64,000 nt of DNA from an uncultured Anaerolineae bacterium (GTDB lineage Bacteria; Chloroflexota; Anaerolineae; Fen-1058). Location: NCBI GenBank assembly GCA_964651475.1, contig CAZYXV010000019.1, positions 11,837-75,836 on the forward strand. The letters are read 5' to 3'. Shown one piece after another: positions 4,778 through 40,258 of this stretch. Under the pieces are notes generated by a model. The model did no database searches, was not told where the DNA came from, and worked only from the letters and a program-made list of their open reading frames with translations. Each line of letters opens with the position of its first letter. Position 1 is the first letter of the stretch. The position numbers and the translations under genes are program-made.

Positions 4778-4789
4778 CTTGACCTCCCA

Positions 4790-4820
4790 GAAACCGGGTT
4801 TTTCCCAAAAACCCGGTTTC
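4790..4820. repeat. Palindrome GAAACCGGGTTTTT-CCC-AAAAACCCGGTTTC between the S8 protease and hydrolase genes (hairpin/terminator-like)
   Basis: Perfect 14-bp inverted arms seen in sequence; lies 3' of the S8 gene stop on the minus strand. Confidence 0.4.
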
Positions 4821-4835
4821 TATTAACCGTCACCT

Positions 4836-6620
4836 TTACTCATTTCTCACAATGACGGGCAAAAATATCGTGTACGGTCGAGCCGCCACTTGAATACGAG
4901 TCACGCAAGTCGCCGCCTCCACCGGGCGCGCAAAATCATTGTGCGTGAGCGTGGCCGTGACGCTCAAAGACGCGCCGGGCGACACAGTTATACTGGCAAT
5001 CAGCGTAAAAGTCAACTTGCCGCCGCCCTCGATCTCGCCCGACCATTCGTAAGTGGGAAAGGCCAGCGTGCCTTGCGGCGCCCAACTGGCCGAAACGTAA
5101 CCCTGGCGCGCATCGAGCGTGTAGGTGAACCAGCGCGTTTGCGGCAGCGCGCCGTCGTTGTTCAAGATCAAGGTATACGTGATCAGATGCGCGCCGGGCG
5201 CGCTGATCAGGGTGGGCGCGCACGTTGACACAAAAGGGTGTTCGCCGAGCACGGCCCGGTACGCATTGACCCGCCCCCAACCGGTATAGTCATCCACCCC
5301 TGGCTCGCCCACGTCGTCGGCGGCGCCGAGCAAGGTAGAGATTACGTCACTGGCCGCAAGATCGGGCTGGCGCGACCAGACCAGCGCCGCCGCGCCCGAC
5401 ACGTGCGGCGCGGCCATCGAGGTGCCCGATTTGGTAAAGTAATTGCCCCGATACCACGTACTGTAAATATCCGCCCCCGGCGCGGCCATGTCCACCTGCG
5501 GGCCGTAATTGGAAAAAGAAGCGCGCCGGTCTTGCGCGTCGGTAGCGGCCACGGCTAGCACCGGCTCGTAGGCTGCCGGGTAAAACACCGCGCCGCCGGT
5601 GTTGCCCGCAGAGGCTATCACCAGCGCGCCGCGCCCGCGCGCGTAATCCACCGCCGCGCGCAGCGTTTGCGAGTCTTGCAGCCCCCCCAGGCTCAAATTG
5701 ATGATGCGCGCGCCGCTATCGGCGGCGTATACTATGCCGGCGGCAATATCGCTATACCAGCCATCGCCGTATTGATCGAGCACCTTGACCGGCAAAATCC
5801 GCGCGCCCCAGGCAATGCCGGCGATGCCCCGCCCGTTATTCGTGGCCGCGGCGGCGATGCCGGCCACGTGTGTGCCGTGGCCATAGTCGTCGCGCACGTC
5901 GGCGTTTTCGGCCGGCGCGTATCCGCCATTATACCAGGAGTGAAAAAAATGCCAGCCGCGCACGTCATCTATTTTCCCGTTGCCGTCGTCGTCCACCTGG
6001 TTGCCGGGAATTTCGCCCGGATTGGCCCATAGCTTGGCCGCCAGGTCTTCGTGTTCCAGGCAAACGCCGGAATCTATCACGGCGATCACCACATCGGGCG
6101 TCCCAGTCACCACGTTCCACGCGGCGGGCGCGCCGATCCTGGCCGGCCCCCACTGGTTGGCCCAACCCGGATCGTTCGGAATGACGAATGACGAGTGACG
6201 AATGACGCCCGGCAAATGGCGAACGTCAAACGCCAAACGCCGGGCGTCAAATGCCAGGTCACGTCGAATGTCTGTGGAATGAGCGGCATAGTCCAGTTCG
6301 GCCCACGCCACGCGCGGGTCGCCGCGCAGCGCTTCTAGCAGCGCGCACTCCTGGCCGGCCGGCGCGCGCACCGTCCACACGTCCAGCCCCGGCAGCCTGG
6401 ATAGCGCCTGCGCCCCGGCCACTTCGTCGAGGCCGGAGCCGGTATCGCGCAGGCTTGCCAGCACAATGCCCGGCGCATAGCCGCCGGCGCAATCGGGAGC
6501 GGCCGGCAGCTCGCGCGGCGATAGCCCCACAAGGACCAACGCCAGCCCCATCAACGCCATCAACTCGATTGGGCGCAAAAGCCTTCCCTTCGTGTTCTTG
6601 GTGTCCTTTGTGGTTAACAA
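4836..6620 (-). CDS. Secreted subtilisin-like serine protease (peptidase S8) with C-terminal DUF11-like domain
   Basis: Catalytic triad motifs VIAVIDSGV (Asp), HGTHVAGIAAA (His), GTSMAAPHVSGAAAL (Ser); N-terminal hydrophobic signal (real start may be the internal Met of MALMGLALVLVG); C-terminal tail ...PYTIFLPVIVRNE. Confidence 0.85.
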   Translation of the reverse strand: MLTTKDTKNTKGRLLRPIELMALMGLALVLVGLSPRELPAAPDCAGGYAPGIVLASLRDTGSGLDEVAGAQALSRLPGLDVWTVRAPAGQECALLEALRGDPRVAWAELDYAAHSTDIRRDLAFDARRLAFDVRHLPGVIRHSSFVIPNDPGWANQWGPARIGAPAAWNVVTGTPDVVIAVIDSGVCLEHEDLAAKLWANPGEIPGNQVDDDGNGKIDDVRGWHFFHSWYNGGYAPAENADVRDDYGHGTHVAGIAAAATNNGRGIAGIAWGARILPVKVLDQYGDGWYSDIAAGIVYAADSGARIINLSLGGLQDSQTLRAAVDYARGRGALVIASAGNTGGAVFYPAAYEPVLAVAATDAQDRRASFSNYGPQVDMAAPGADIYSTWYRGNYFTKSGTSMAAPHVSGAAALVWSRQPDLAASDVISTLLGAADDVGEPGVDDYTGWGRVNAYRAVLGEHPFVSTCAPTLISAPGAHLITYTLILNNDGALPQTRWFTYTLDARQGYVSASWAPQGTLAFPTYEWSGEIEGGGKLTFTLIASITVSPGASLSVTATLTHNDFARPVEAATCVTRIQVAARPYTIFLPVIVRNE

Positions 6621-6660
6621 GATACCTGCCTGAATAGTTACTCGTACTCTTTATTGAAAA

Positions 6661-6777
6661 GGGTGTGACCAAAATCGGTGGGTCGCCTACGTAGGGGCAG
6701 GGCTTGCCCCTGCCCAATGCGGGCAACCGCAAGGGTTGCCCCTACGCCTCAACCAGAATTGGTCACACCCTATTGAA
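6661..6777. repeat. Nested palindromic REP-like element with GCAA tetraloop hairpins
   Basis: Outer inverted repeat GGGTGTGACCAA...TTGGTCACACCC, inner CGTAGGGGCA...TGCCCCTACG, and hairpins GGGGCAGGGCttGCCCCTGCCC and GGGCAACCgcaaGGGTTGCCC; a related copy in inverted orientation at 11555-11615. Confidence 0.5.
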
Positions 6778-6890
6778 AAAGCCACCGGGGTTGCCCCCAG
6801 TGGCTTTTCCGTTGTCAGGGAACCTGCCGGGTCTAGCAGGTCGTCAGAGCGGGCTGGCATTGGGATGCCAGCCTGCTCTCCGACAGGCTG

Positions 6891-9800
6891 CTAGTTGTTC
6901 TTCATAATGATGGGCAGGTAGATCATGTAACCCGTCGGGGTGACCTCTTCCACCCACGTCTCGGTCATGTCGGTGTTATCGGTGAAATCCATGTCCCAGT
7001 CGCTTGTAGTGATTTCGATATGGTTGGTTACCGTCATGCCAGAGACGGTGATGGTGATTGGCACGTACACCGTGAACACGTCACCCACATCCAACGTGCC
7101 AGAAATGGGCCACGCGTGCTGCCAAACAGCAGTGCCGCTCGCCACGACCGTGTCGGTGATCATCACGTCGTGGGCGGGCGCGTAACCATTGTTGCCATAG
7201 TTGACGGTAAAGGTCACAACGTCGCCCAGTTCGGCTGTGGCGGGACCTGACTTGGTTACCCACACGTCAGGGTGTAGCCCAACGTACGTGACCAACTCGT
7301 CAGTGGTCCGACCCATAGCGGCATCCTCGTGCGCAAAGTGGGTAATGAGGGCCACAGGCGGGTCACCCAGTCCAACCGTGACGCTGGCCACCAGTGTGTA
7401 CATCACCCCACCCGGAGGCACGTCGCCTTCCCACTCGAGTATGGGCAGGTGCGCCGTGCCGCCCGTCCAGTCGTGCGAAACGTAGGTCAGGGCCGGGTCG
7501 AGCGTGAACGAGAAATAGTGTGTCTGGGTCAATGCGCCAGCATTCATCAAATCCAACGTATAGGTGATCATGTGCGTGCCTGGCATGCTGATGTTAAGAG
7601 GCGTCACACTAACCTCGTACAGCCCCGGGTTAGACACGTGCACCAAGGCCCAGGTGTGATCGGCGCCTTCTTCGAGCAACTCGACGTGCCAGCCGTACTG
7701 GACGCCATAGTCGCCCGGATTGCCGGTGCCGCCATAGTAGCCCAGACCCGTGTTCGCGTTATACCAGTAGCAGCCCAAGCGTCCGGTGTTAGTGGAGGCG
7801 CAATCGAAGCGGAACTCGCTATCTGGGCTATTGCTGACTCCATCGTATCCGGGCGCGTTGAGCGGGTAGGACGCTTTGGCCGGAATGACCACGCTGGCGT
7901 CCCACTGCTTGGTGACCCACTTGTAAGAAGGCGGGACATAGCCCGGGCCGCGGCTGACGTACTCTGCGCCGGGATAGTAACCCAGCGCGTCGTTAAACTC
8001 GCTCACCGCAGGCCGCCCCTCAAAGTGGTTCGTAAAGAGTGTGGTCGTGAAGGGGAACGCATAGACTGTTGTATAGGTAAAGTCTACGGTATCTTGCAGC
8101 GTGAACGGCGCGTCGCGCATCTGCCCGCGCGAGGTCACGTTGCCGCCCTCGTTATCGTAACCGGCGGCGACCATGTCCGGCTCGCGGTATGGCTCGGGGT
8201 GCGCGTCAACCACCAGCGTGTTGCCCTTGGGGCCCCAGCTCGGCCACTCGGCCAGGTAGTTAAAGATTTCGGTGTCGCTCTTGCTGTTGTTGTTGTACCA
8301 CACCAGCATGCCGGTGTTGGCCGGGCCAAAGCGCCAGCGATCCTCGCCCAGCGCGCTGTCGTAGCCGCCGTTTTCGTTCACGTTGCGCCACTGGACATAA
8401 TAGTTGTGAGTAAAGCCAGTTGTGCCGTCGCTGCGAACCCATGGATCAGCATAAACCCAGTTGGCGTCGCCCGCCTCGGCGTTGTCGGCAAAAATTGTCG
8501 TCGCGCCATCCATCACGGCTACGTTATCCACAAACGCGCCCGTGTAGGTAGTGGCCCAGTCGGTCATGAACCAAAAGCGCAGCAAGATGTTTTGGCCGGC
8601 GTAGGCGGCCAGGTCAAACGTCTGCGCTTCAGGATCGGGCCAGTTAGCATTGTAGCCGTAAAAGCCTCCCAGGCCGGCGCCGCACAAGTCATCCGGGAAG
8701 CCATAGTTCCCGCCGATCCAGCCCGGATCGTGGTCGCATTGGGTATTGGCGTTGGTGAGCGTGTCCCACGTGGTTCCGCCATCGTCCGACGCCTGAATCC
8801 ACAAGAAATCCCACTCGTCTTCAATCTCATAGACCAGGTCAAAGGACAGCGTGGCGCCGCCAGCGGGAATGGCGATGGGATTGGCCGTCGTCATCATGGC
8901 ATTCGCCTGGTCCAACTTGCCGCCCCACCAGTAATAGTCGCCCTGCCAAACCGGCACGGCCATGGGAATGACCGCATCGGGCAACTCGATCTTGGCGCCG
9001 CGATAGGTGCGGGACGGGTCGGGCGAGGTGTTGGTAGAATAGTAGCTGGCCTGCCCCAGATAGAACGTGTACTCTCGGGTCGTGTCTGTGATGACGAGCG
9101 GTTCGAGCCAGCCCCACAGATCCAGATGCGTGGGATCAACCGCCGGCGGCTCAAAGCCGATGGGGAAGCCCGTCCAGTCATCGGACATCAACGACCAAAA
9201 GCCGGTCGAGGTTTGGCCTTCGCCGTAAGCGTACAGATCCCACGCGCCCAGGTTATGGCCATATTCGTGCGCGAACACGCCAATGCCGCCGTTTTCGGGC
9301 ATCATGATGTATGGGCCGGCGGCCACGTCTTGCGTCACCGAGTAAGGCGGGGTGACGGCCGACGAGTGCGACCAGACCGCCGCTTCGCCGTAGAACGCTT
9401 CAGGCACGGGCGTGGTGCGGGTAGGATCGTCGGGATCGGTTGGGTCGCGGTTCAACAGCGCGGTGCCGTCTTCCTCCCCATAACCGGCGTGGACGATCCA
9501 CAGGCGGTTAATGATGCCGTCGCCGTCCAGGTCATAGTTGGCCCAGCTAAAGTTGGGGATAGTATTGCTGATGGCATTGACGGCATCCAAGGCATCCCGA
9601 ACCAGAGTTTTGGTTGAGCCTGCATTGGGCATGTCGCCGTCGGCTCCCGCGCCGCTGCTCAAGCCTGAGCGATTGCCAGGGCAGCTATCAGCGCCGTACC
9701 ACCAGGTCGAGTGCGGCACTTTCAACCAGCCGATCACATCGCCGGTGATGGTATATACGCCGCTCGACAGGTCGCTATAGTAATCGGTCACCGATTGGCC

Positions 9801-10394
9801 AATAAAGCTTTCGTAGATGGGTGTGTCGTCTTGCATCGTGTAGCTGATCGCCACGCCGTTGCCGAACATAAAGTTATCGAACCACTGCGGGTCAAAGTCA
9901 TCGGTCCAGATGCTCTGGCCAGAGCGATCATCCAGCGCGCGCGGCCGCTCGATCATGTTGTGCAGCGGGCCGGTGTAGGTGAAGGTTGTGGTTTGGGTGA
10001 TGATGTTGGAACAGTCGCCGGTGGTGCCGGTGTATTCGTTCTCGTCGGCAATGCCTAGTGGATCCCAGGCATCGCCAGGATTCCAGGTGACCACGTCTGT
10101 GCCATCGAACTCGACCAGGATCACCAGCACGCGGTCGGTGCCGCTCTGGGCCAGCGCCGCCGCTTCGGCCGTCTGTCCGGCTTCCAGCAAACGCTGGCGC
10201 TCGCGCATGCGCAAATAATCCTTTACATTCGGCTGGTCAATCGGCTTGACCTTTTGAGTACCCGGCACGACGTCGGCCGGTTTAACGATCACTTCGTCCC
10301 CCGGCGCGGGCGGATTGGCCCCCACCGGCAGGACCGTCAATATGCTGCTGAGCAATACGACAATCGTCAATACGTTAAATAACCTGCGTTGCAT
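6891..10394 (-). CDS. Secreted zinc metalloprotease, M6 (immune inhibitor A/InhA-like) family, large multidomain (1167 aa) with DUF11-like repeats
   Basis: Signal peptide (MQRRLFNVLTIVVLLSSILTVLPVGA); HEYGHNLGAWDLY matches the M6 HEXXHXXGXXD zinc-binding motif; C-terminal tail ...GYMIYLPIIMKNN. Confidence 0.7.
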   Translation of the reverse strand: MQRRLFNVLTIVVLLSSILTVLPVGANPPAPGDEVIVKPADVVPGTQKVKPIDQPNVKDYLRMRERQRLLEAGQTAEAAALAQSGTDRVLVILVEFDGTDVVTWNPGDAWDPLGIADENEYTGTTGDCSNIITQTTTFTYTGPLHNMIERPRALDDRSGQSIWTDDFDPQWFDNFMFGNGVAISYTMQDDTPIYESFIGQSVTDYYSDLSSGVYTITGDVIGWLKVPHSTWWYGADSCPGNRSGLSSGAGADGDMPNAGSTKTLVRDALDAVNAISNTIPNFSWANYDLDGDGIINRLWIVHAGYGEEDGTALLNRDPTDPDDPTRTTPVPEAFYGEAAVWSHSSAVTPPYSVTQDVAAGPYIMMPENGGIGVFAHEYGHNLGAWDLYAYGEGQTSTGFWSLMSDDWTGFPIGFEPPAVDPTHLDLWGWLEPLVITDTTREYTFYLGQASYYSTNTSPDPSRTYRGAKIELPDAVIPMAVPVWQGDYYWWGGKLDQANAMMTTANPIAIPAGGATLSFDLVYEIEDEWDFLWIQASDDGGTTWDTLTNANTQCDHDPGWIGGNYGFPDDLCGAGLGGFYGYNANWPDPEAQTFDLAAYAGQNILLRFWFMTDWATTYTGAFVDNVAVMDGATTIFADNAEAGDANWVYADPWVRSDGTTGFTHNYYVQWRNVNENGGYDSALGEDRWRFGPANTGMLVWYNNNSKSDTEIFNYLAEWPSWGPKGNTLVVDAHPEPYREPDMVAAGYDNEGGNVTSRGQMRDAPFTLQDTVDFTYTTVYAFPFTTTLFTNHFEGRPAVSEFNDALGYYPGAEYVSRGPGYVPPSYKWVTKQWDASVVIPAKASYPLNAPGYDGVSNSPDSEFRFDCASTNTGRLGCYWYNANTGLGYYGGTGNPGDYGVQYGWHVELLEEGADHTWALVHVSNPGLYEVSVTPLNISMPGTHMITYTLDLMNAGALTQTHYFSFTLDPALTYVSHDWTGGTAHLPILEWEGDVPPGGVMYTLVASVTVGLGDPPVALITHFAHEDAAMGRTTDELVTYVGLHPDVWVTKSGPATAELGDVVTFTVNYGNNGYAPAHDVMITDTVVASGTAVWQHAWPISGTLDVGDVFTVYVPITITVSGMTVTNHIEITTSDWDMDFTDNTDMTETWVEEVTPTGYMIYLPIIMKNN

Positions 10395-11615: not shown

Positions 11616-11845
11616 ATTATTGAGAAGATACGGCCACCCTTTATCATGCCATATTCCAAAAGAATTGTCAATGGCTCACCTTGGCATCTGCTCTATCCTG
11701 GCACACAGCAGTTGTCAAGGCAACGACCATGTGCTATAGTGTATAGAAATCGCCAGCTTGCTGTACCGGATTGGTTTTTGTCTACTCAGTATAACGGGAA
11801 AAAAGCGGGCCGGATACGGCCTGAAACGTAATAAGGAGGAACCCA

Positions 11846-14800
11846 TGTTTTGCCCAAAATGCGCCCATCCTAACCCGTCCGATGCTACAACGTGCCACAA
11901 GTGCAAGCACGATATCCACGACGCGCGCGACCGCGTGTTCATCGGCCGCGAATTTATCTTTGTGCAGGCCGACGAGCGCCGCCCCGTCGCGCTCAAGGTA
12001 GACGGCGCCGTACAAACGTATCGCGCCGCCGCCATCCTTTCACGGCACCAGCACGCGGTCAGTTTTGGCGACGCGCCCCCTGCAAGCAAAAAGCAGCGCG
12101 AAAGGTGGCCCTTGCCCGATCAACCCCAACTGCCTCTGCCATCGCTCAAGCTGCTGACCGTCGTCAGCGACCGCAAGATTTACAAGCCCAGCACCGAAGC
12201 GCACCTGTTCATCGTCGCGCCGGACGCGGCGGAAAAACAAGCCGCGCTCGAAATCAAGCTGGCGGGGCAAAAGGTGTACGAAGCCAGCGTGGCGCTCAAC
12301 CGGGATGGCCTGGCGCTGCACTGTTATCCGGATCTAAAAGAAGGCGAATACACGGCGCACGTCACGCTGCCCGGCGGGCAGGCCGAGTGTTCGTTCAGCG
12401 TGGCCGAGTTCACGCTTTCTCCGCTAATCGCTACGCTGGAAAAGCACGAATACGCCAAAAAGCGCCTCACCTTCACGCTCAAGCTGCTCTTGCTGTCTGC
12501 GCCTTACTCTGGCGAGGTCGAGCTTGGCTTGCAGTGCCAGGTGTGCGGCGAGCGCGTGGTGGCCACGCAAAAAGTCAAGGCCCAGGAGGGCGTGGCGCGC
12601 GGCGACTTTGACCTTTCGGGGCACGGCGGGCCGTTCCACGTGCAAATCACCACGCCCGACGGCAACACGGCGCTGGTGTCGTTCCCCGGCACAGGCGCCG
12701 TCGAGCGCGAGCACATCAAGATTAACCGATTGGGTCAAGAGTACGAGGCAGGGTTATTGCCGTGGGAAGGCGCCGAGCCTGTGCGCGGATTTTACATCGG
12801 CCCCGGCGCGATGAACGTGACGCCGCTGACGCTGGAAAGCGTCCACGCTGAAAGCGGCAAGTTAAAAGCGGCAAGCGACATATCATCGGCGCAGGTGGTA
12901 TCGTTCAATCCGCGCGCTCTGACGGTCACGCTGGACGAGGTAAAGAGTCTCAAGCGCGGCGACACAATCGAGTTTGCCGTAGACGCGCCATACACACTGT
13001 TCACCGTCGGCGCGTTCACCAAAGACAAGCCATTTGAAGGCTGGGGTATCGTCGTCAAACCAGTGGCGTTCGAGGCCGCGCTGACCGCGCCCCCAACGGC
13101 CCAACCCGGCCAAGAGATTGGGATTCAAATTTCCGAGTCTGGCGCTGGCGCGTTTTGCCTGCTGCTCGTTTACGACGCCCGGCTGGAACACGAAAGCCCC
13201 ACGCCCAAGCTGGCCAGGCGCATTTACGAAAGCGTGCGCGACGCCACCGGCAATCTGACCGCCGGCCAGGTGCCCAGCGCGAGAGAGCAAAAGCAATTTG
13301 TGCCAGAGGACGTGGTATTGGGAGGAGTGGATGGCATGCCGATGATGCCTTTTGCGGTGAGATCGCCGATGGCCGTGATGCGCGCCGCCGCGCCTCAGGG
13401 ATACGCCATGGCTGAAGAAGCCGAAGCCATGCCCACCAAATCCCTGGCCCAGACCGCCGTCGCCCAGGCGCCGACGATGGTGGTGGCGCCCACGCGCATG
13501 GAATTCCCCGAGCTGGCCTACATCGAAATGTTTTATCTCGAAGGCCAGGCCTCGCGCACCGTCAGGCTGGGCGACCAGATTGGCACGTGGCGCGCGCGGG
13601 CTTATGTGTTCAAGGGAGCAGACTATCGCGAACTCACTGCAGACGTCCAGGCCGACAAGCCCCTCTACGCCGAACTCGATCTGCCGGCGATTGCCAGCAC
13701 CGGCGACGACATCACGGCCGCCGTCAATTACTTTACCCGCGAGCCGGCCGAGCTGGTCGTCACGTCGCTGTTCGGAGAAACGCGCCACCGGGTGACGGGC
13801 GCGGGCGCTGAGCATTTCTCCATCCAAGGCCCGGGCCGCGTGGAGGTGCGCATCGAAAATCCGCATGGCTCGGATTGGAGTGTGCGAGACGTCGCCCCGC
13901 CCGGCGTGCAAAAAGTGACCGCCTCGCGCCTGGTGATCCTGGACAAGGGGCAAACCGCGCAAGGCGAAAAGGTGGTGATTTACGCTTCGATGGGGCAGGT
14001 GCTCAAAGACACCATTACGGCCCTCATTCACTATCCGTTTGGTTGAGCGGAGCAAACCTCGTCGGCCCTGTATGGGCTGGCTATAGCTTATCGCGGCATC
14101 ACCGGCGGCGTCGTGCCGGGCGACCTGGCCACCACGCAGGGGCGCATCCTGGCTGGCCTGCAGCGCCTGTCTACGTTCCAATATCCAGACGGCATGTACG
14201 CCATCTGGTGCGGCGGCCAGCCGGGCGTAGACATCACCTCGCGCGTGGCGCATCGCCTGTTGGGATTGCGCGGGCTGCCGTTCCCAATGTCCGAAGACAT
14301 GTTGATCAAGGCCAAAGACGCGCTGCTCAAGACCAAATACCACGATAATTCGCTCTTGCCGCTCGATGCGGGCTTTGGCAAAAAGATGGAAAGCGCCGAG
14401 GACGCGGTGGCGTATTATTTCGCGGGGAATGGCCAGCGCGACAAGGCGCTCCAACTCTTGCGCAAGACCGTTCAACGCGAAGGCAGCAAGGTCTATTGGA
14501 AAGCCACCTCCTCCTGGGGCGGGAACCTGGAAGTGAGCGCCGACGCGGCGAGGGTCATGTACCACGCTAAAGACGAGCTGTTCCGCCCGGCGTTCGCGTT
14601 CGTCACCGGCAAGCTGGTCAACGGCATGTTGTATTCCACCGCCGACACGCGCGCGCTGGTGCACTTGCTCGCCTCGCTCCAGTTCGACCCGGCCACGCGG
14701 GCGGTGATTGACGGGCAAGAAGTAGCGTTGGGCGACCCTTCGGCAGGCTCAGGGCAAGTCGTCACCGTCGGCAAGCAAGTGACGGCGCTCAGCGACAACT

Positions 14801-15159
14801 TGATTGTGCGCCTGGACGAAGAGATCGAGATCAATCACCTGGAGCCGCGCGCCGATTTCCAATTCGAGGTCAAGCCCACCAAGACCAAACTGGACGTGGG
14901 CGAACGCATCCAGATCACCGTCACGCCCAAAGAGCAGACGATTGCCCCGCTGGCGCGGCTGTTCTTGCCCGGCAACCTGGCGCTGCTCAAGGGCGGCGCC
15001 AACGCGCAGACGGCGCACTTGCCCATCGAGCGCAAGGAACTCGTCGTAGACGCGGTGGCCGTCAGGCCGGGGCGCGGCAAGCTCTACGTTTCGGTCCACG
15101 ACATGTACGACGCGGATAAAGTCGGCACCATGCCGGGCATTGAAATCAGCGTCAAGTAA
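11846..15159 (+). CDS. Alpha-2-macroglobulin-family protein with N-terminal zinc ribbon and no signal peptide; reading frame interrupted by an in-frame TGA (14044-14046) exactly at the thioester cysteine codon. Candidate selenocysteine recoding, or a pseudogene, or a sequencing error.
   Basis: Strong RBS AAGGAGG before ATG 11846; N-term CPKC...CHKC; Met/Ala-rich bait-like region (AVMRAAAPQGYAMAEEAEAMP); ...LIHYPFG-TGA-AEQTSSALYGLAIAY aligns with the canonical P-x-G-C-G-E-Q-N/T-M thioester motif; downstream TED-like QYPDGMYAIWCGG. ORFs 11758..14046 and 14113..15159 are in the same frame and read through continuously. Confidence 0.6.
14061..14081 (+). other. Candidate bacterial SECIS-like hairpin 3' of the in-frame UGA
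   Basis: GUCGGCCC (14061-68) / loop UGUAU (G at loop position 2) / GGGCUGGC (14074-81): 8-bp stem including G-U pairs, apical loop 23 nt after the UGA. This fits the 16-37 nt spacing of minimal bSECIS models as I recall them. Confidence 0.3.
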
Positions 15160-15162
15160 CCC

Positions 15163-16578
15163 ATGCGTCCATCGCGCCACGCTCGTATTCGCCGCGTGCC
15201 GCCTCCCGCTCGCCGCTTTAGCTGGCAGGGGGCGGCCGCCTTTGGAATCGTCGTGCTGACGTTGGCGGCCGCCCTGGGCGCTACCGCCATCTATGTTCTG
15301 CGGATGCTTCCCCCGCGTTACATCGTCGCCTACTTGCCCGAACCGCTTCAGGGGCTTGCCAGCCGGCCGCGCGTCGAGTTGCCCACGCCAGTCGCCACGC
15401 TGCCTTCCCATCAACTGGCCGCGCTGCTCACGCCGGTTGCAACCAGCCAGCCAGCAGATCAGCCAACCCCAACGGCGAGCCTCGCCCCCTCGCCCATGCC
15501 CGCCGCCCTCTCGTCTCCCGCTCCGCTTGCCGCTTCTCCCACCCCCACCACCACGCCCACGCCCACGCCCACGCTCACCCTCACGCCGGCCTACGCGCCC
15601 GGCCCCGCACAGATAGCGCGCAGCACGCCGGCGGTACTATCCGACACGAGCATACTCTTGACCGGCTTTACCCACGCGTACCAGACGTGGAACAATTGCG
15701 GGCCGGCCACGCTGGCCATGGCCCTGAGCTACTTTGGCTGGGCCGGCACGCAAAAAGACACCGCCGCCTTTTTAAAGCCCGACCCCGAGGATCGCAATGT
15801 ATCGCCGGACCAGGTCATCACTTATGTGCGTTCGCAGGGCTACCACGCCATGCTGCGCTCGGGCGGCACGCTGGATATTCTCAAGGCGATGTTGCACGCC
15901 GGCTTGCCGGTCCTTATCGAAAAAGGATTCGAGCCGGACGACAAGTTGGGCTGGATGGGCCACTATTTGTTGATCGTGGGCTATAGCGAGCCGCGCCAAG
16001 AGTTTGTGGCCATGGATTCGTACCTGGGACCGTCGCAATCCGCGCCGTTCGCCGAGACCGACCGCTACTGGCGGCAGTTCAACCGGACGTACATTGTGAT
16101 TTACGAAACCGCCGACCAGGAATTGATGGTGTCGCAGCTGATCGGCAGTTCAGCCAGCGACGCCGCCATGCATCAAAACGCCATGGCCGCCGCCCAGGCC
16201 GAAGTCGCCGCCAACCCACAAGACGCTTTCGGCTGGTTCAATATCGGGACGAATTACGAAGCGATGGGAATGCACGCCGAGGCCGCCGCCGCTTACGACC
16301 GCGCGCGGCAATTGGGTCTGCCCTGGCGCATGACGTGGTACCAGTTCGGCTGGTTCGAGGCTTACCTGGCCACGGGGCGATACGACGACGTATTGGCGCT
16401 GGCCGACGCCACGCTCAAGTCTAATCCGTACTCTGAAGAAATGTATTATTACAAGGGACGCATGCACGCCGCGCGCGGAGAGCTAGACGCGGCGCGCGAG
16501 CAATATCAACTGGCGCTCCAGCACAATGCCTACTTTTCCGCCGCGCAGCAAGCCCTGATGGCGTTAGGCAATCCATAG
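15163..16578 (+). CDS. Membrane-anchored peptidase C39-like domain protein with Pro/Thr linker and C-terminal TPR repeats
   Basis: N-terminal TM helix; YQTWNNCGPATLAMALSYFGW matches the C39-like catalytic Cys region; C-terminal TPR-like helices; 4-bp gap to the A2M-like gene suggests an operon. Confidence 0.6.
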   Translation: MRPSRHARIRRVPPPARRFSWQGAAAFGIVVLTLAAALGATAIYVLRMLPPRYIVAYLPEPLQGLASRPRVELPTPVATLPSHQLAALLTPVATSQPADQPTPTASLAPSPMPAALSSPAPLAASPTPTTTPTPTPTLTLTPAYAPGPAQIARSTPAVLSDTSILLTGFTHAYQTWNNCGPATLAMALSYFGWAGTQKDTAAFLKPDPEDRNVSPDQVITYVRSQGYHAMLRSGGTLDILKAMLHAGLPVLIEKGFEPDDKLGWMGHYLLIVGYSEPRQEFVAMDSYLGPSQSAPFAETDRYWRQFNRTYIVIYETADQELMVSQLIGSSASDAAMHQNAMAAAQAEVAANPQDAFGWFNIGTNYEAMGMHAEAAAAYDRARQLGLPWRMTWYQFGWFEAYLATGRYDDVLALADATLKSNPYSEEMYYYKGRMHAARGELDAAREQYQLALQHNAYFSAAQQALMALGNP

Positions 16579-16727
16579 AGCCATTTCAAGGCCTTGGTCA
16601 TCGTTTCGGCCATTTTCACCGCAGAGGCGCAGAGGCCGCCGGGTTTTCAATTGATTTTCCTCCGCGTTCCCCGCGTCTCTGCGGTGCACTACACCCCGTG
16701 TGGCCCACAGGATGACCAACACCCATT

Positions 16728-17618
16728 TCAAGGTTGCACCACTAGGGCGTTTCTGGCCAAAAAAGCGCCGTCAAACAAAATCGGCACTGGTTTGCTGCGC
16801 CGCCCATCCGTTTGAATGTGTAGATGGGGACGCCAGCTCTTGCCCGAGTTGCCCACCTTGGCCAGCGGATGGCCAACCTCGACCCGGTCCCCCACCTCCA
16901 CCACCACGCTCCCCTTGAGCAAATGCCCTAACAAAATCCGAATGTCGCCGCATTGCAGCACCACGCGGTTCATGGCCCTGCTGGCCATAAACAACTTGTT
17001 CACGGGAGAATCGGGAATGACATTCATGACCTCGACCACTTGTCCCTCACAAGGACTATAGACAGTCGCCCCGTAGATTACATAGTCGTCCACCTCCGAG
17101 GCGGCAAACCCATTGCTATGTCTTCCCCAGCCATTCAACGCTTCGATATCCACAGCGTACGTCGTCGAGTCGCTCATGAGGTGGCCGTTGAGCAGCGGGT
17201 GGCTGCCCCCATCGGCGATATAATAGATGCCGCCTTTTAGAGGGAAGGCAAGAGAAACAGGCTCACCTTCGTACCTGTACCCCCACAGGATACTCAGATC
17301 GAAAAAGATCAACACAGCCGCAATCGCCAGGCTAATGCCTGTGAGCAGCCAGCCGCCCGCGCTTTCGTGCCAAAAAGGTCGCGGCCTCACCCGCCAGTAA
17401 GCGGCGCGCGCCACGATTACAAACACTGCCACGAGAACGTACCTCAGCACGTAGCCGAGCATGGACCAGGTGCCGACCATAAAGCGCTGCATCACCACCG
17501 CCCCGCACACGCCGGCGCGCAGCAGCCAATCCACCTTGCGCTGGTCCCGGTCGAACCACAACCAGGCCATCAATCCAAGCGGAATCAGCAAATCAGCAAT
17601 GACCGCATCAGATAACAT
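16728..17618 (-). CDS. Membrane-bound M23 (LytM-type) metallopeptidase
   Basis: Four N-terminal TM helices; C-terminal HPLAKVGNSGKSWRPHLHIQ matches the M23 GNSG-x-S-x-GPHLHF motif. Confidence 0.75.
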   Translation of the reverse strand: MLSDAVIADLLIPLGLMAWLWFDRDQRKVDWLLRAGVCGAVVMQRFMVGTWSMLGYVLRYVLVAVFVIVARAAYWRVRPRPFWHESAGGWLLTGISLAIAAVLIFFDLSILWGYRYEGEPVSLAFPLKGGIYYIADGGSHPLLNGHLMSDSTTYAVDIEALNGWGRHSNGFAASEVDDYVIYGATVYSPCEGQVVEVMNVIPDSPVNKLFMASRAMNRVVLQCGDIRILLGHLLKGSVVVEVGDRVEVGHPLAKVGNSGKSWRPHLHIQTDGRRSKPVPILFDGAFLARNALVVQP

Positions 17619-17706
17619 TTATCCTCACCACTATGCTGCGTTCATTGCCTGAGCTTACCAGAAAATTCAACTTTTGACTAGCCGGCTGGAGAGGGCGTCG
17701 GCCCAC

Positions 17707-17737
17707 CTTCCTGGAAGCTCGGAGCTTCCAGGAAGGT
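17707..17737. repeat. 31-bp perfect palindrome CCTTCCTGGAAGCTC-G-GAGCTTCCAGGAAGG (copy 1)
   Basis: Seen directly; near-identical copy at 25578-25608; sits in the divergent intergenic region upstream of the giant membrane-protein gene. Confidence 0.6.
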
Positions 17738-17814
17738 AAATCCGCTCATTTTGTGTTATACTAGCCTCAGCCCAATCGCGGCGCGCAAGCCCATATCCAA
17801 ATGACCGAGGAGAT

Positions 17815-20800
17815 ATGCACTGTCCAGCTTGTGACCAGCCTGATTTTGATCCAACTGCGCCTTGCCCTCAATGCCAATTCAGCGGCGACCCGGCCCTGGT
17901 GGAGGAACTGGCCCACGTGGACTGGGTGCTGGATCAGATAGGGGGCTGGCCCGTGTTCAACGAGGCCGACCGGCAATCTATCCGCCAGCATTACGCCGCG
18001 CGCCAGCGTGAGCTTGAAATCAACCTGGGACTGCGCCTGCCCCCCTTCACCGATGAACAAGCCGCCGCCGCGTGGCCGGAACTTGTTCAGCGCGAGGCGC
18101 TGCTCCAATACCTGGCCGAATGGCTGGAGGAAGGCTCGCTTCAACCGCCGGCGGCGCAAACACTCGTTGAACAGGTCAAGCGTCAAATCAAAGACCTGCT
18201 CGAACAACTCGAGGGGCGCGCTCGCCCCGCCTTGCATCAAACCGATTTTGGGCGACTGGACCTGATTCGCTTTCTTTTGGAAGCGGTTGACCATCTGAGC
18301 CAGAAAGATGGCTTTGCCACGCCAGAGGCGCACGCATTGGTCCGCAGCCGGCTAGAGGCCCAGCAAGAACACCTTGAAATTAACCTGGGGCTGCGTCCCG
18401 CGCCAGCGCCCGAACCCCAGCCGGCGCCGCCCGAGCCCGAACCTGCGCCGCCCGCGCCGCCGCCCGCCCCGCCCGCCGCGCCGCCCCTTCCCTTCCGCGA
18501 TAGGCTGTTGCGCACGCTGCTTTCCGTGCGCACGCTGCAAGCGCTGCTCTTTTTGGGCATCTTTTTGACCTTTTCGGCGGCGCTCTCGTTTGTGGCCTGG
18601 GGATGGCGCGACTTTTCGGCCCCGCTGCGCGTGGCCATCCCCACCGGCTTTACGGCTCTCTTTTTCGCGATGGGTTGGTACGTCCGCACGCGGACGCCTC
18701 TGTATCGCTCGGGCATCGCGCTCAGCGCGATTGCATCGCTGCTCATTCCCATAGACTTTTACACGCTTTACGCCAACCTGAACATCTCGGCCGATTATGG
18801 GCCATCGTTCTGGCTGCTGACCTCGCTGGCCTGCCTGGCCGCCTACATTGTGACCACGCTGATTATCCAGAACCCGCTTTTCGGCTACCTGGTGGGCGTG
18901 GCCGCCGGCAGCACGGTGCTGGCCCTCATCCAGGTGGCGCACCAGGCTCTTGGCTTCTCGCTCGATTGGCGCACGGCGGGGCTATCGGCGCTGGCGCTGT
19001 GTTTCACCGTGCTATCGGCGCGGCGCTCGTCGCCCCGCCTGCCGCGCGTGTTCGCCGACCCGCTCCGCGCGCTGGCCCTGCTGGCGATGGGCGTGTTGAT
19101 GCCGCTGAGCTTTGGCTGGCGCTACATTGGCCGCAGCGCGTACGACACACTCCATTATGCCATGACAATCAACTGGTGGGTGGGCGGGTTCATCTTTGGA
19201 TGGGGGGCGGTGTACCACCGCAGCCGCAGCCTGGGGATACTGGCGGCAATGACGCTGCCCATCGCCACGTATATGGCCCAGGCCGCGCTCTTTGACTGGC
19301 GCGAGATTAATCCCGCGTGGCACGCGTTTGGATGGGCCTGCCTCGTGCCGCTTTATTTCGTCGTCGGCCATAGATTGCTGGCCCGTAAAGAGGACACTGT
19401 TCTGTATGGGCACGGGCGGACGGCAACGGGATGGGGCGCGGCGCTGCTCATCGCCGCGGCTTTGTGGTCCCTCACCGAGTTTAGCAGCGGCGCTGCGGCG
19501 GCCTGCAGCCACGCGGTCCTGGCCGGATCGGTGGTTTTGGCAACGCGATTGTGGCGGCGTCCCGCGTATCTTTACGGCGCGTCGCTTTTATCGTTTTCGG
19601 CCCTCACCTTTGCCCTCACCGAGTTGAACCTGAACCTGTCTCAACTCACGCCCGGCTGGGCCGCGCTTGCCATCGCGCACATGCTGATTGCCATTCGCCT
19701 CCGAGACGCCTCGGCGCAAGGGCAGGCCGGCGCGCCCTCTTTTTTTGCCACGCCGCTCGTGACGGCTGCCTACGCCCTGGCTGCCCTGGCAATCGCGCAG
19801 GCGCTCGCGCCTTACGATGGCGACAGTGTGGCGTATGTGTTGGGCAACTGGCTGGGGCTGGCGGCCTGGGGCGCGTGGCTGGCGCACACAGGACAGCCCG
19901 GTTTTGCCGCCTCCCCCCCTTCGCGCTCCACGTTTTTTTCACGCGTGCTATATGATTTTAGACGCTCCCGCTTTCATTGGTTCACGGCCTTGCCCCTGCC
20001 CGTGTGGCTGTGGGTCTTGTTTTCCAATCGCGGGCCGCTGGATTCCAGCTTTCCAATCGCGCTGGCCGTTTTAGCCTGGGGGCTGGGGGCGCTCAGTTAC
20101 CGGCTCGAACGGGTCGAGAGCGCGTATGGCCTGCCGTGGTACCTGATGGAATTGCTCGTCAGCATCGCCGCGCCGCTGGCAGCCTGGCTCGTCGCGCCGG
20201 AGGGTTTCACGCCGGCGTTGTGCTTGCTGGCGGTTGGCCTGCTTTACTTTGCGGACGCCGCCGCCAACCGGCAAACGATCGAGCTGTTGCCGGGCGGATT
20301 GGTGACGGCCTGGGGGCTGGAACGCTTGCTGGACAAGCTGCGCGTTTCTTTTGACGCCACAACCCTCATCCTGGCGCTGCTCGTGGCCGCGTACATTCTG
20401 GGCGCGCTGTGGATCGAGCGCAAGAAATCGCCCGTCTTTACCCATCGCTTCTTGATTCCGCTTTACCTGTCAGCCCACTTGATCAGCCTGGCCGTGCTGT
20501 GGCGGATTTACGTCCATCCCATCAACGACGTCTTGCGCGATATTGCATGGACGGACGAGATGCGCGCGTGGGGCGCGGCCGGCCAGATCGTGCTGGGCAT
20601 CGTTTACGGCCTGTACGCCTGGGGCATTTACAAAGAGCACTGGGCGCACGCGGCGGCGTGGCTGCTCATGGGCGGCGGGGGATTCGTGGCGATTGCCTAT
20701 AGCCAGGGGCGCGGCTCGTCGGCGGCCAAAGGCGCGCTGGCTGTGATCGCCTTTATCCTGGCCGAGCGCGCGCTGCACTGGCTCCGCGGGCGTCCCCTCC

Positions 20801-23694
20801 TCCACCGGACCAGGCGCACTGAAAGACGATGGCAGGCGATTTTCAGGCTGGCGTGGCGGCTGTATCGTCGTCCGCTGCTGGCAAGCGGGTGGATCGCTTC
20901 CGCCGGCGTTATCGGGCTGGCGCTGGTGCGCAACCTGTGGCTCTTGGGCGGGGGACGTATCCAGCAAACCTGGGCGGCGATTGGCCTGGCGCTGATCACG
21001 GGCCTGTACGCTCTTTCGGCGCGGCTGTTCCGGCAGGCGCGCTTTGTATGGATGGCGGCGGTGCTCGTCTTTGCGCCGTGGACGATCTTGACCAACCTGG
21101 GCTGGTTCGTTTTGCACAAGCCCACCACGCCGGGTTTCGCGCTCAGTTGGGTCGTGCTGGCGTGGGCGCTCTTTTTAGTCGGCCTGCTCGTGCAGCGCGC
21201 CACCCGTCCTTCGGCAAGCTCAGGACACCACCGCATCCACACAGGGGCGTATGCCCTGCCGCTCAGGACCGTGGCGCACGTCTTGCTGCCTCTTTCGCTC
21301 TTGTGGGGCATTGCCGACGTGAACACCAGCCGGATAACGTTCGCCCTGGCGATTGGGTTTTATACGCTGGCGGCCATACTTGATTACGTTGAAAGGGAAC
21401 CGGATCGGGCGGGGCAGGTTGTAAACCGGACGAAATTCCTTTACCCGGCGTTGGGCCTGATTCCCGTGTGGTGCGTTTACGTGTTGCGCTGGCTGCTGCC
21501 TGCGGCGCGCCACGAACATTACGGCCTGATGCTCCTGGTGTTTGGCCCGCTCGGAGTAGCCGCCGGCCAATCCCTCGAACGCTTTATCCTCGCCAGGAAA
21601 TCGAGCCTTCCAAATGTCCGCCAGCTTGCCGGCGGCTATGCCCTGCCGGCTTATCTCACAGGCTATATCTCGCTCATCGTCGGCACGATGCTGGTAGCGC
21701 ACCAGCCAGCGCTCCTGGCGCTGACGCTGCTCTACGATGCGCTGCTCGCGCTGGTTTCCGCCCGCATCTTCAGGCATCCACTATGGGTCTATCCGGCGGT
21801 CGCCCTGACGCCGCTCTCGCTCCTGATCGCGCTGAACCAGGCCGGCGTGGCCGGCAATCGTCATGGGTGGTGGTTGATCGGGCTGGGCGCGGTGTACCTG
21901 GGCCTGACGTGGGCGCTGCGCCGGCTCAAATCAGGCGCGTACAGCACGGCCACGCTGGCAAGCGGCTTTGCGCTGATTGCTTTAGGCTTGCCGCCCTCGA
22001 GCCAGGATAAAGACGGCGCACTGTGGGGCTACGGCGGCGCGGCGCTGCTGTACGCCGTCACCGCGTTTTGGCTGCGCCAGCCCTTGCTGTTGACCCCCGC
22101 CTGCGCGCTGGCCATCGTGCCTTACGCGATCGTGATTCAACGCTCGCCCCTCGCGCCGGACTATTACGGATTGGCGCTGTTTCCCGGCGCAGCGGCGGCG
22201 CTGGCGCTGGGTTGGCGGCTCGACGCCGGCTGGCGAGATTTTCCGTGGGGCCATCCGCCTAAATGGGGATTGGCGCTGGGCGAGCGTTTGCTGAATTGGT
22301 GGGCGCTGCCGCTCTACGCGCTGGGCTTTGGCCTGACAGCGGCCAGCCCCTTGTTCACACACTCCCGCGCAGGTCTAACGGCCCTCAACCTGGCGCTGAT
22401 GATGCCGCTGTTTGGATGGGCTATCTATCGCTTCCGGCTGCGCGGCTGGCTCCTGGCGCTGGCCGCGGCGGGACACCTGGCCGCGCTGTACTTTCTTAAA
22501 GAGTTGGGCTGGTGGCGCTATCCGCCGTATGCCTGGGCCAGATTCTTGCCGGTCACGCTGGCGGCGGCGGGAGCTGGCATGCTCATCGAATGGCGGCGCG
22601 AGGAAGGCTCGCCGCTTCACCCGGCGCGCCTCCTGGCGGGATGGTCGCGCCCGCTGTACGGCCTGGCGCTGCTCGACGTTATCGTGAGCCAACTGGCAAG
22701 CCTGGGCGGCACGAGCGATGGGGCGCTCGTCACCCTGACGCACGCGCTGCTAATCGCCGCGCTGGCCTCGTTTTGGATATCCGGCTCGCTGCCTTTTCTC
22801 AGCACGGCGTTGGGCATTGTAGCATTGCTGCAATGGCTTTTTACCCTGCGCGGCCTAATGGAAGGATTGCCGGTGGCGCTGGCGCAATTGGCGCTGGCGT
22901 ATGGATTGGTCGGCTACGGGTTGGCGTTCGCGCGCAAGCGGCCCGGCGCTGCCAGCCCCCGGCTCTGGATTTGGGAGACGCCCCTGATACAATCGGGCCT
23001 GTGGTTATCTTTTGCCATCCTGGTAATCACAGCCATATTTGGCATTGACCTGGTAGGGTGGACCCTCCGCGCCATGCTTGGTTTTTCTTTCCGAGACATT
23101 GTCGAACTAGAAACCGTGCGAATGATAGTTGGCGTGCTGGCCTTGTTAGGGCTGCTCTACGTGGGCGCGGCCTTTACGTATCGCCGCGTGCGGCTGGGAT
23201 ACGCGGCGATTGGGATGCTGTTGGCCGCCTGGATCACGCACGCCTTTTACGTCCAGCAGTGGGATGGCGCGGCGCACGTGCAGTGGTACGCCGTGCCGGC
23301 GGGACTGTACCTGGCTGGCGTGGCTTTTGTGGAATGGCAGCGCGGCAACAAGACCTTTTCTCGGTGGCTCGATTACGCGGCGCTGGCGTTGATGATGAGC
23401 TCGCTCTTTTGGCAGACGCTGCTCTTTGGCTGGCGCTACGCCCTCATGCTGGGCGCGGAGGGCTTTGCGTCTTTTTGGTGGGGCAGCGCCCGGCGGCTGC
23501 GCCGCTTTCTATACGCCGGCATGCTGGGCGTGGTGCTGGCGACTGTGGCGCAATTGATCAACTCGCTGCAATCCATCAACCAATGGATCGTCTTTGGGCT
23601 GATTGGACTGCTGGCGATTGCGGCCGCCGTGCTGATCGAGCGCAAGCTGGAAGAAATCAAGGCGTGGCTAGAAGTGTTGGAGACGTGGGAGTGA
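17815..23694 (+). CDS. Giant (1959 aa) polytopic integral membrane protein with N-terminal zinc ribbon, helical/Pro-rich linker and roughly 50 predicted TM helices; function unknown
   Basis: MHCPACDQPDFDPTAPCPQCQF zinc ribbon; PAPEPQPAPPEPEPAPPAPPPAPPAAPP linker; remainder dominated by hydrophobic Leu/Ala/Trp-rich helices. Confidence 0.6.
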   Translation: MHCPACDQPDFDPTAPCPQCQFSGDPALVEELAHVDWVLDQIGGWPVFNEADRQSIRQHYAARQRELEINLGLRLPPFTDEQAAAAWPELVQREALLQYLAEWLEEGSLQPPAAQTLVEQVKRQIKDLLEQLEGRARPALHQTDFGRLDLIRFLLEAVDHLSQKDGFATPEAHALVRSRLEAQQEHLEINLGLRPAPAPEPQPAPPEPEPAPPAPPPAPPAAPPLPFRDRLLRTLLSVRTLQALLFLGIFLTFSAALSFVAWGWRDFSAPLRVAIPTGFTALFFAMGWYVRTRTPLYRSGIALSAIASLLIPIDFYTLYANLNISADYGPSFWLLTSLACLAAYIVTTLIIQNPLFGYLVGVAAGSTVLALIQVAHQALGFSLDWRTAGLSALALCFTVLSARRSSPRLPRVFADPLRALALLAMGVLMPLSFGWRYIGRSAYDTLHYAMTINWWVGGFIFGWGAVYHRSRSLGILAAMTLPIATYMAQAALFDWREINPAWHAFGWACLVPLYFVVGHRLLARKEDTVLYGHGRTATGWGAALLIAAALWSLTEFSSGAAAACSHAVLAGSVVLATRLWRRPAYLYGASLLSFSALTFALTELNLNLSQLTPGWAALAIAHMLIAIRLRDASAQGQAGAPSFFATPLVTAAYALAALAIAQALAPYDGDSVAYVLGNWLGLAAWGAWLAHTGQPGFAASPPSRSTFFSRVLYDFRRSRFHWFTALPLPVWLWVLFSNRGPLDSSFPIALAVLAWGLGALSYRLERVESAYGLPWYLMELLVSIAAPLAAWLVAPEGFTPALCLLAVGLLYFADAAANRQTIELLPGGLVTAWGLERLLDKLRVSFDATTLILALLVAAYILGALWIERKKSPVFTHRFLIPLYLSAHLISLAVLWRIYVHPINDVLRDIAWTDEMRAWGAAGQIVLGIVYGLYAWGIYKEHWAHAAAWLLMGGGGFVAIAYSQGRGSSAAKGALAVIAFILAERALHWLRGRPLLHRTRRTERRWQAIFRLAWRLYRRPLLASGWIASAGVIGLALVRNLWLLGGGRIQQTWAAIGLALITGLYALSARLFRQARFVWMAAVLVFAPWTILTNLGWFVLHKPTTPGFALSWVVLAWALFLVGLLVQRATRPSASSGHHRIHTGAYALPLRTVAHVLLPLSLLWGIADVNTSRITFALAIGFYTLAAILDYVEREPDRAGQVVNRTKFLYPALGLIPVWCVYVLRWLLPAARHEHYGLMLLVFGPLGVAAGQSLERFILARKSSLPNVRQLAGGYALPAYLTGYISLIVGTMLVAHQPALLALTLLYDALLALVSARIFRHPLWVYPAVALTPLSLLIALNQAGVAGNRHGWWLIGLGAVYLGLTWALRRLKSGAYSTATLASGFALIALGLPPSSQDKDGALWGYGGAALLYAVTAFWLRQPLLLTPACALAIVPYAIVIQRSPLAPDYYGLALFPGAAAALALGWRLDAGWRDFPWGHPPKWGLALGERLLNWWALPLYALGFGLTAASPLFTHSRAGLTALNLALMMPLFGWAIYRFRLRGWLLALAAAGHLAALYFLKELGWWRYPPYAWARFLPVTLAAAGAGMLIEWRREEGSPLHPARLLAGWSRPLYGLALLDVIVSQLASLGGTSDGALVTLTHALLIAALASFWISGSLPFLSTALGIVALLQWLFTLRGLMEGLPVALAQLALAYGLVGYGLAFARKRPGAASPRLWIWETPLIQSGLWLSFAILVITAIFGIDLVGWTLRAMLGFSFRDIVELETVRMIVGVLALLGLLYVGAAFTYRRVRLGYAAIGMLLAAWITHAFYVQQWDGAAHVQWYAVPAGLYLAGVAFVEWQRGNKTFSRWLDYAALALMMSSLFWQTLLFGWRYALMLGAEGFASFWWGSARRLRRFLYAGMLGVVLATVAQLINSLQSINQWIVFGLIGLLAIAAAVLIERKLEEIKAWLEVLETWE

Positions 23695-23698
23695 GGCG

Positions 23699-31756: not shown

Positions 31757-31918
31757 GGTTGCTGAGAGATTGCAGCAAGATTACAACAAGATTACAGTTG
31801 TAAATCAATGGGGAAAACGAGTGTATTATACAAGTACACCTCCTTTTATCGGGGTTAAACGTCATGACGATCAAACAAGCACATCTAGACTGTTGACCAT
31901 GGGGAAAGAGTGTATTGA

Positions 31919-33136: not shown

Positions 33137-33297
33137 GCATATTGCGCCGCGGGTGAGTGCGGCGCAGTGGCCTCCATAACGATGCAGACGCCGGAGGTAA
33201 CAAGGTGATCAATGACGGGACATGACGATGTTTTATCGGTTATGTCCCGCTGCGTTTATCACGCTCTGCCAGTCTCTATGGGGAGAGGAATAAGAAC

Positions 33298-37901: not shown

Positions 37902-37902
37902 A

Positions 37903-39845: not shown

Positions 39846-39867
39846 CAGCATCAACTCCGGCTCTAAA

Positions 39868-40214: not shown

Positions 40215-40258
40215 CCGAGGTGTAAGCACCCGGCTCCAGGCTCGAGGGGAGACGAAAA

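Follow-up and report, generated by a model that had tools for sequence, protein, structure and literature searches.

A compact alpha-2-macroglobulin-like protein family with an in-frame UGA, probably decoded as selenocysteine, at the thioester codon

Within the window, by which we mean the whole 64,000-nucleotide stretch analysed here from an uncultured Anaerolineae bacterium (contig CAZYXV010000019.1), the gene at 11845-15159 is described as a compact member of the alpha-2-macroglobulin (A2M)/thioester superfamily in which the codon expected to specify the reactive cysteine is a UGA. We consider it highly probable that this UGA is read through, the inserted residue most likely being selenocysteine (Sec) to judge from the comparative evidence, and that a hairpin lying inside the coding sequence directs the decoding. 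The original prediction had raised selenocysteine at this codon from the window alone, and that interpretation now finds support in the conservation of the TGA, in Cys-containing homologues, in selection acting past the TGA and in a conserved RNA element. All features of the gene described below are on the forward strand.

The TGA at 14044-14046, residue 734 and the proposed selenocysteine codon, joins two open reading frames (ORFs) that share one frame, the upstream ORF ending in ...ALIHYPFG and the downstream ORF continuing with AEQTSSALYGLAIAY..., so that read-through gives one A2M-like protein of 1104 amino acids with its stop, a TAA, at 15157-15159. The upstream ORF had earlier been given a TTG start at 11758; the gene begins instead at the ATG at 11845 (MFCPKC...), as do its homologues, whose starts read MFCP or MYCP. 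The 733 codons before the TGA (11845-14043), delimited by translation, by homologue starts and by the Pfam A2M match, comprise a zinc ribbon, macroglobulin-type beta domains, a bait-like segment and, immediately ahead of the recoded codon, the residues YPFG (14032-14043). The 370 codons after it, together with the TAA (14047-15159), are assigned from Pfam TED_complement and from a structure model to an alpha/alpha thioester-type domain followed by a C-terminal beta domain. Both Pfam domains exceed their gathering cut-offs, if only by small margins, with A2M (PF00207) scoring 21.4 bits versus 21 at residues 566-632 and TED_complement (PF07678) scoring 24.6 bits versus 22 at residues 715-804, and this bears out the earlier claim of a single A2M-family read-through protein.

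In a phmmer search against the PDB, the stretch YPFG[TGA]AEQTSS pairs with YPYGCLEQTAS of Escherichia coli ECAM. The TGA therefore falls exactly on the thioester Cys of the ECAM CLEQ motif and, as homologues also have Cys at the same codon, replacement of the thioester Cys codon was correctly recognized in the original prediction. In the same alignment, the Tyr at -4 and the Tyr or Phe at -2 relative to the TGA correspond to ECAM Tyr1183 and Tyr1185, which belong to the pocket that protects the thioester (PMC4498604). The thioester Cys of the C-x-E-Q motif is absent here, its codon being TGA and not TGY, with the Glu and Gln kept. If Sec is inserted, the Cys of the type I motif would be replaced by its selenium analogue.

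A search of 5.8 billion proteins was performed with the read-through sequence as query, and the 120 best homologues (43-74% identity) were examined. As many as 118 of them stop at ...YPFG, are 620-800 amino acids long and cover no more than the first 66% of the query; the other two are full-length and read YPFG-C-AEQTSS and SSFG-C-AEQTSS. Querying with the C-terminal part retrieves complementary fragments of about 300-370 amino acids, which in GenBank metagenome-assembled genomes (MAGs) carry neighbouring locus tags, for example JW850_15905/JW850_15900 and ACE5G8_07165/ACE5G8_07170. For P0011/P0190, P0050/P0173 and P0107/P0232, the public annotation consists of two adjacent hypothetical proteins. 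At the DNA level, the codon is TGA in 44 of 44 distinct loci from MAG and metagenome DNA, with no instance of TAA, TAG or TGY, and in those main-set loci with enough sequence it is followed by 362-370 open in-frame codons. When 1.84 billion cluster representatives were searched exhaustively with a profile, the family came to just 388 members in all, and proteins at 30-37% identity were added that likewise end in YPFG or YPYG. Five divergent loci in this identity range again have TGA, followed by 360-490 open codons. Comparison of orthologues thus returns the same TGA in 49 of 49 distinct split-type loci and Cys in other homologues. Hereafter, we refer to the TGA-containing members as Sec forms and to those with TGC or TGT as Cys forms.

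The region just past the TGA is translated in the same frame. The 19 codons directly after it show a ratio of nonsynonymous to synonymous substitution rates (dN/dS) of 0.14-0.19, with dS near 1.3 and with Ser codons switching between TCN and AGC; since these codons lie upstream of any candidate start and are under purifying selection, they must be read in this frame. The Ala-Glu-Gln of the U-A-E-Q motif (14047-14055), where U denotes Sec, does not change in any of the 44 Sec-form sequences, although its codons vary synonymously. Identical sequence was recovered from independent Logan assemblies, and one contig was seen in 14 samples. TGA is also the ordinary stop of 13 of the 30 window genes (TAA or TAG ends the other 17), so the genetic code in use is the standard one.

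Homologues with Cys occur both outside and inside the main group of Sec forms. Outgroup homologues at 30-40% identity, from Thermoprotei, an Atabeyarchaeia chromosome, Bacillota, Vulcanimicrobiota, Spirochaetales and others, have TGC or TGT within YPFG-C-AEQT, and the carriers of a Cys codon include P0002, P0005, P0212, L003-L010 and L124. In a neighbour-joining tree, which is rough and carries no support values, the main TGA forms make up one clade in which three Cys forms (L140, L141 and L146) are nested, and the outgroups are all Cys. Two TGA loci, L147 and L148, fall outside the main clade and group there with Cys forms; like L149, they are at 30-34% identity and have no zinc ribbon. Because of the nested Cys forms and of L147 and L148 outside the main clade, exchange of Sec and Cys at this codon is judged recurrent, having occurred more than once by the evidence of the tree. 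This is the classic pattern of a Sec/Cys pair, situated at the thioester codon.

Downstream of the UGA there is also a constraint at the RNA level, beyond the needs of the protein sequence. Strong synonymous-site conservation marks an 11-nt core, CCCUGUAUGGG (14066-14076), in which a stem of 3 bp closes the loop UGUAU; the second nucleotide of the loop is G and the third is U. This mini-hairpin, CCC-UGUAU-GGG, has its loop starting 22 nt past the UGA. In 42 of the 44 Sec forms, codons 7-10 behind the UGA read GCC or ACC, CTG, TAT and GGG, a combination that the codon usage of these genes would predict for about 1.5% of sequences; the remaining two have TAC (UAC). Unlike these core codons, nearby Leu, Tyr and Gly codons vary freely. 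In 1.77 Mb of collected DNA, the 11-mer was counted 52 times, every time in this gene context, and it is retained in a locus whose GC content is 47% and whose protein identity is 36%. The exact 11-mer is missing from all three close Cys forms (Fisher p = 6e-4): all use TAC, and in two of them the CCC/GGG pairing is lost.

In the window, the core is part of an extended hairpin (14061-14081) whose 8-bp stem, GUCGGCCC / GGGCUGGC, encloses the UGUAU loop in the minimum-free-energy fold. Its folding energy of -15.3 kcal/mol compares with -7.8 +/- 2.4 kcal/mol for synonymous recodings (p = 0.0055). With a 5-nt loop, G at position 2 followed by U, an 8-bp stem, 22-nt spacing and this energy, the window hairpin fits the published model of the bacterial selenocysteine insertion sequence (bSECIS, or SECIS in general). 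The 8-bp stem is restricted to the window and its closest relatives; the lower stem, perfect in the window, elsewhere contains a 1x1 internal loop or a 2-nt 3' bulge. Hence the SECIS-like hairpin of the original prediction holds for the window as to stem and loop, but what the family as a whole conserves is limited to the 3-bp CCC/GGG stem and the loop. The 8-bp stem was rejected as a family-wide structure, as there is no covariation and only three C-G pairs are invariant. Folding of the whole 67-nt segment is unremarkable (z = -0.5). In the three most divergent TGA lineages, unrelated hairpins are found (L147:12176-12235, L148:3418-3477 and L149:2259-2318), with apical loops that are all AGGU and lie 37, 37 and 19 nt from the UGA, respectively. 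SECIS turnover would be expected to leave dissimilar hairpins with one type of loop at an allowed spacing, and the AGGU-loop hairpins of these lineages speak for Sec having been gained repeatedly or for such turnover.

The fold was assessed on an AlphaFold2 model of P0002, a Cys form 62% identical to the window protein (mean predicted local distance difference test, pLDDT, 88; predicted template modelling score, pTM, 0.73). The model has beta domains to residue 726, a helical region (729-957) starting at the Cys itself and, C-terminal to it, another beta domain. Its single long low-confidence stretch, 510-555, matches the Met/Ala-rich candidate bait segment, which in the window protein spans approximately residues 482-557 (13288-13515) and is highly variable among homologues. 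Foldseek searches of the PDB with this model return A2ML1, CD109, ECAM, SaA2M, C5 and TEP1, with E-values from 1e-36 to 1e-32 and TM scores of about 0.5. According to the model, the multi-domain fold is A2M-like, combining macroglobulin beta-sandwich domains with an alpha/alpha thioester domain.

The closest comparison is with the type I bacterial A2Ms, ECAM/YfhM and SaA2M (PDB 5a42, 4ziq and 4u48), which have the same overall fold (Foldseek E of about 1e-35). ECAM and the window protein share the motif Y-P-[YF]-G-[C/U]-x-E-Q residue by residue, and the window protein has a candidate bait-like linker, predicted to be disordered; their sequence similarity is marginal (E = 0.002). ECAM-type proteins are protease-triggered covalent traps, a mechanism that is only proposed for the window protein. 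The differences are several. ECAM has a Cys codon where the window gene has UGA, and ECAM-type proteins have about 1650 amino acids, with extra N-terminal domains, whereas the window family is about 1100 amino acids long. ECAM/YfhM has a lipoprotein signal; the window protein has an N-terminal zinc ribbon with no such signal evident. ECAM-type genes neighbour pbpC, whereas no pbpC is adjacent in the window, where the nearest gene for a class A penicillin-binding protein is 28 kb away. Eukaryotic thioester proteins (A2M, A2ML1, CD109, C3/C4 and TEP1) include the best structural matches (7q1y, 8s3o and 4lnv) and match the mechanism proposed for the window protein in the concept of an internal Cys-Gln ester and of activation through a bait region; they are, however, secreted glycoproteins with Cys in CGEQ, and no selenium member appears in the reviews searched. 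The compact Cys A2M-like proteins (L003-L010, L124, P0002 and P0005) are of the same family, at 30-62% identity and in the same length class, and read YPFG-C-AEQTS; they differ in having TGC or TGT, in lacking the 11-nt element and in having mostly Glu 55 residues downstream of the thioester position.

The zinc ribbon itself is formed by CPKC (11851-11862) and CHKC (11893-11904), and the pattern CxxC...CxxC recurs in 101 of the 120 homologues. By eye, no signal peptide is evident at this N-terminus. Outgroup Cys forms mostly have neither a zinc ribbon nor a signal peptide. The combination in the present family suggests a non-secreted A2M-like protein, which would be unusual in the superfamily.

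In the mechanism we propose, SelB and Sec-tRNA(Sec) would decode the UGA as selenocysteine under the direction of the coding-sequence hairpin with its CCC-UGUAU-GGG core. Within U-A-E-Q, Sec734 would form an internal seleno-ester with its proposed acyl partner, Gln737 (14053-14055), by analogy with the Cys-Gln thioester. This bond would stay buried as long as the bait region is intact; once cleavage there has exposed the acyl donor, the seleno-ester would acylate a nucleophile on the attacking protease and capture it covalently. Termination at the UGA under limiting Sec would yield, in addition, a truncated product of 733 amino acids. Because a selenol is both a better nucleophile and a better leaving group, the seleno-ester warhead should, by chemical analogy, be more reactive than a thioester. 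Carrying this further, the stored Sec-Gln seleno-ester could be a one-shot warhead working by acyl transfer and not by redox chemistry, repeatedly evolved or exchanged with Cys in Chloroflexota and in at least one or two other lineages, with the co-evolved Cys of the main clade handling the released selenol. We advance this fuller scenario tentatively and rate its chances at slightly below even.

Known bacterial selenoproteins in which Sec stands for a catalytic Cys offer a parallel, as they too have an in-frame UGA, Cys homologues and a hairpin in the coding sequence just downstream. In glutamine amidotransferases, the Cys that is replaced acts as the acyl-enzyme nucleophile. A CTP-synthase-related glutamine amidotransferase is among the predicted selenoproteins (Table 1, PMC13188914) and may be taken as a partial precedent for a seleno-acyl species. 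The acyl species of that enzyme is a catalytic intermediate, whereas the acyl bond proposed here would be a stable, stored intramolecular crosslink that is used once.

A number of results weigh against decoding as Sec, or against the seleno-ester. Neither selA, selB and selD (tblastn with E. coli SelA, SelB and SelD) nor tRNA-Sec (ARAGORN) was found in the 64-kb window and the collected flanks of the loci. The agreement with the bSECIS model that had been anticipated from the window hairpin does not carry over to most relatives: our own strict implementation passes only 18 of 44 members, versus 15% of random in-frame positions, and with that background it is too unspecific to be decisive. Covariation is absent, as RNAalifold on the 44 sequences keeps nothing beyond the three invariant C-G pairs and pair counting in two stem registers finds neither above controls. 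Tested against synonymous recodings, hairpin stability reaches significance in just a part of the loci (p from 0.002 to 0.39), and an Rfam scan of 13900-14300 with E-values up to 10 gave no match. On chemical grounds, a seleno-ester formed from a Gln amide should also be thermodynamically less favourable than a thioester. As background from the literature, single-cell genomes of Anaerolineales are reported to encode SelB together with Sec-containing formate dehydrogenases, and SelB is likewise reported in Anaerolinea thermophila (PMC4959059). On the strength of that report, the Sec trait exists in this part of Chloroflexota, which is not proof for the genomes considered here.

Among the rival explanations, the one deserving most attention accepts that Sec is inserted and dispenses with the acyl bond. 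Sec734 would then be a redox or metal-binding residue, paired in the main clade with Cys789 as a selenenylsulfide. Cys789 (14209-14211), located in the motif IW-C-GG, lies 55 residues after the Sec codon. At +55, all 35 of the 35 Sec-form loci compared and 112 of 113 C-terminal fragments have Cys, as does just one of 12 Cys forms; Glu stands there in all nine outgroup Cys forms, with Gln and Arg in two of the nested ones. This distribution favours a redox pair, as does the presence of redox motifs in most catalogued prokaryotic selenoproteins (PMC13188914). Against it, every Sec form keeps Glu and Gln in U-A-E-Q unchanged, as well as the pocket residues Y-P-F/Y-G, which argues that acyl chemistry has probably been retained. 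Divergent Sec forms, moreover, do without the extra Cys (L147 and L151 have Glu, L148 Lys and L149 Thr). Cys789 cannot, then, be required for Sec function, and its candidacy as an obligatory partner was rejected as a universal rule. It could equally capture the selenol freed after the ester has reacted, so that Cys789 may be either a selenenylsulfide partner or a keeper of released selenol. Also in favour of the pair, the Trp beside Cys789 corresponds, by residue count, to Phe1047 of human C3, which probably belongs to the thioester pocket; Cys789 would then lie near Sec734. Altogether, we regard a purely redox or metal-binding Sec as unlikely, while leaving it a real share of the probability.

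Selenocysteine could be dispensed with altogether if the UGA were read through by a near-cognate tRNA for Trp, Cys or Arg, or by a suppressor tRNA, with the hairpin stimulating read-through. The evidence for read-through is indeed indirect, the Sec machinery did not turn up in the sequences collected, and the generic bSECIS model is of low specificity. However, the codon is exclusively UGA in 49 of 49 loci, and the residue replaced is Cys, a hallmark of Sec sites. In every hairpin type, the small loop, 19-37 nt from the UGA, has GG or GU close to its beginning, as a bSECIS does. Inefficient near-cognate decoding at the key residue of an 1100-amino acid protein would carry a high cost, and several lineages are unlikely to have kept it; we consider this explanation improbable. 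More improbable still is that the UGA is a true stop, with the gene split in two and a C-terminal thioester-domain protein made by re-initiation. Gene callers and GenBank do annotate two adjacent proteins, and there is a GTG at 14113. Yet no part of the region is better conserved than the 22 codons that separate the TGA from the first possible start (dN/dS of about 0.15), and the predicted downstream starts vary among loci from 50 to about 250 nt past the TGA. A split would also delete the reactive Cys while AEQ stays invariant, and it leaves TAA and TAG never used at this codon, though these end 17 of the 30 window genes. A pseudogene, or a sequencing or assembly error in which TGC was read as TGA, would need just a single-base change to explain the window taken alone. 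This is refuted by the recurrence of the codon in 49 distinct loci, which come from numerous samples and assemblers, by the recovery of identical sequence in independent runs and by in-frame purifying selection on both halves, and both trivial alternatives named in the original prediction, a nonsense mutation and a TGC-to-TGA error, may be set aside as having a negligible chance of being correct. Decoding of the UGA as Sec thus remains the interpretation we prefer.

With regard to novelty, a May 2026 review counts 119 prokaryotic selenoprotein families, none of which is A2M-like, thioester-related or a protease inhibitor (PMC13188914). A 2026 review of A2M evolution makes no mention of selenium. 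No selenium-containing A2M or thioester protein was found in the literature searched. No model in NCBIfam release 20 or PADLOC matches the protein. Within the literature searched, this is probably an undescribed selenoprotein family with an unusual, probably non-redox use of Sec.

Genomic context adds little that is common to the family, as no conserved gene neighbour was found across the loci compared. In the window, a gene for a C39-like cysteine peptidase with TPR repeats (15163-16578, forward strand; Pfam and NCBIfam) begins 3 nt after the stop of the A2M-like gene and is possibly co-transcribed with it. This arrangement also occurs in L144, and other loci have different neighbours. The flanks in the window (3161-10394 and 15163-25012) are rich in peptidase genes, comprising an S33-like hydrolase, an S8 subtilase, an M6 InhA-like metalloprotease, the C39-like peptidase, M23 and PrsW, and S8 and C25 peptidases lie nearby in L081. 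A scan of the window for further in-frame TGA candidates gave a single other long case, at 23692, which was rejected, as the frame beyond it is the shadow of the PrsW gene. The gene concerned encodes a protein of 1959 amino acids (17815-23694) with no Pfam domain and only the SCO7613 C-terminal membrane domain of NCBIfam; it ends in TGA, and the 360 open codons that follow are the PrsW gene seen in another frame. Further along, 25575-27326 encodes a full-length DUF6909 protein (E = 4e-220). The interval 30239-37901 holds a possible conflict-system cluster, with Trans_reg_C plus AAA_16, Effector-associated domain 7 (EAD7), and a STAND-type NTPase with AAA_16 and TPR; it is followed at 37813-40777 by GNAT, radical SAM and NYN-domain genes. 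Near the window end, two adjacent minus-strand ORFs (62335-63351 and 63488-63964) both match the C-terminal domain of D-Ala-D-Ala ligase and could be paralogues or a split gene.

To our knowledge, nearly all known selenoproteins employ Sec for redox or metal chemistry. Seleno-esters are far more reactive than thioesters, a property already exploited by chemists. If the interpretation is true, Sec at the A2M thioester position adds a stored acyl bond to the natural biochemistry of selenium, and the natural Sec and Cys versions, existing side by side, would permit a direct test of what Sec contributes in a non-redox setting. Hundreds of database entries are mis-annotated as two hypothetical proteins, and the family is a candidate addition to the catalogue of the prokaryotic selenoproteome. 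It also defines a compact, apparently non-secreted group of A2M-like proteins distributed over Chloroflexota, other bacteria and archaea.

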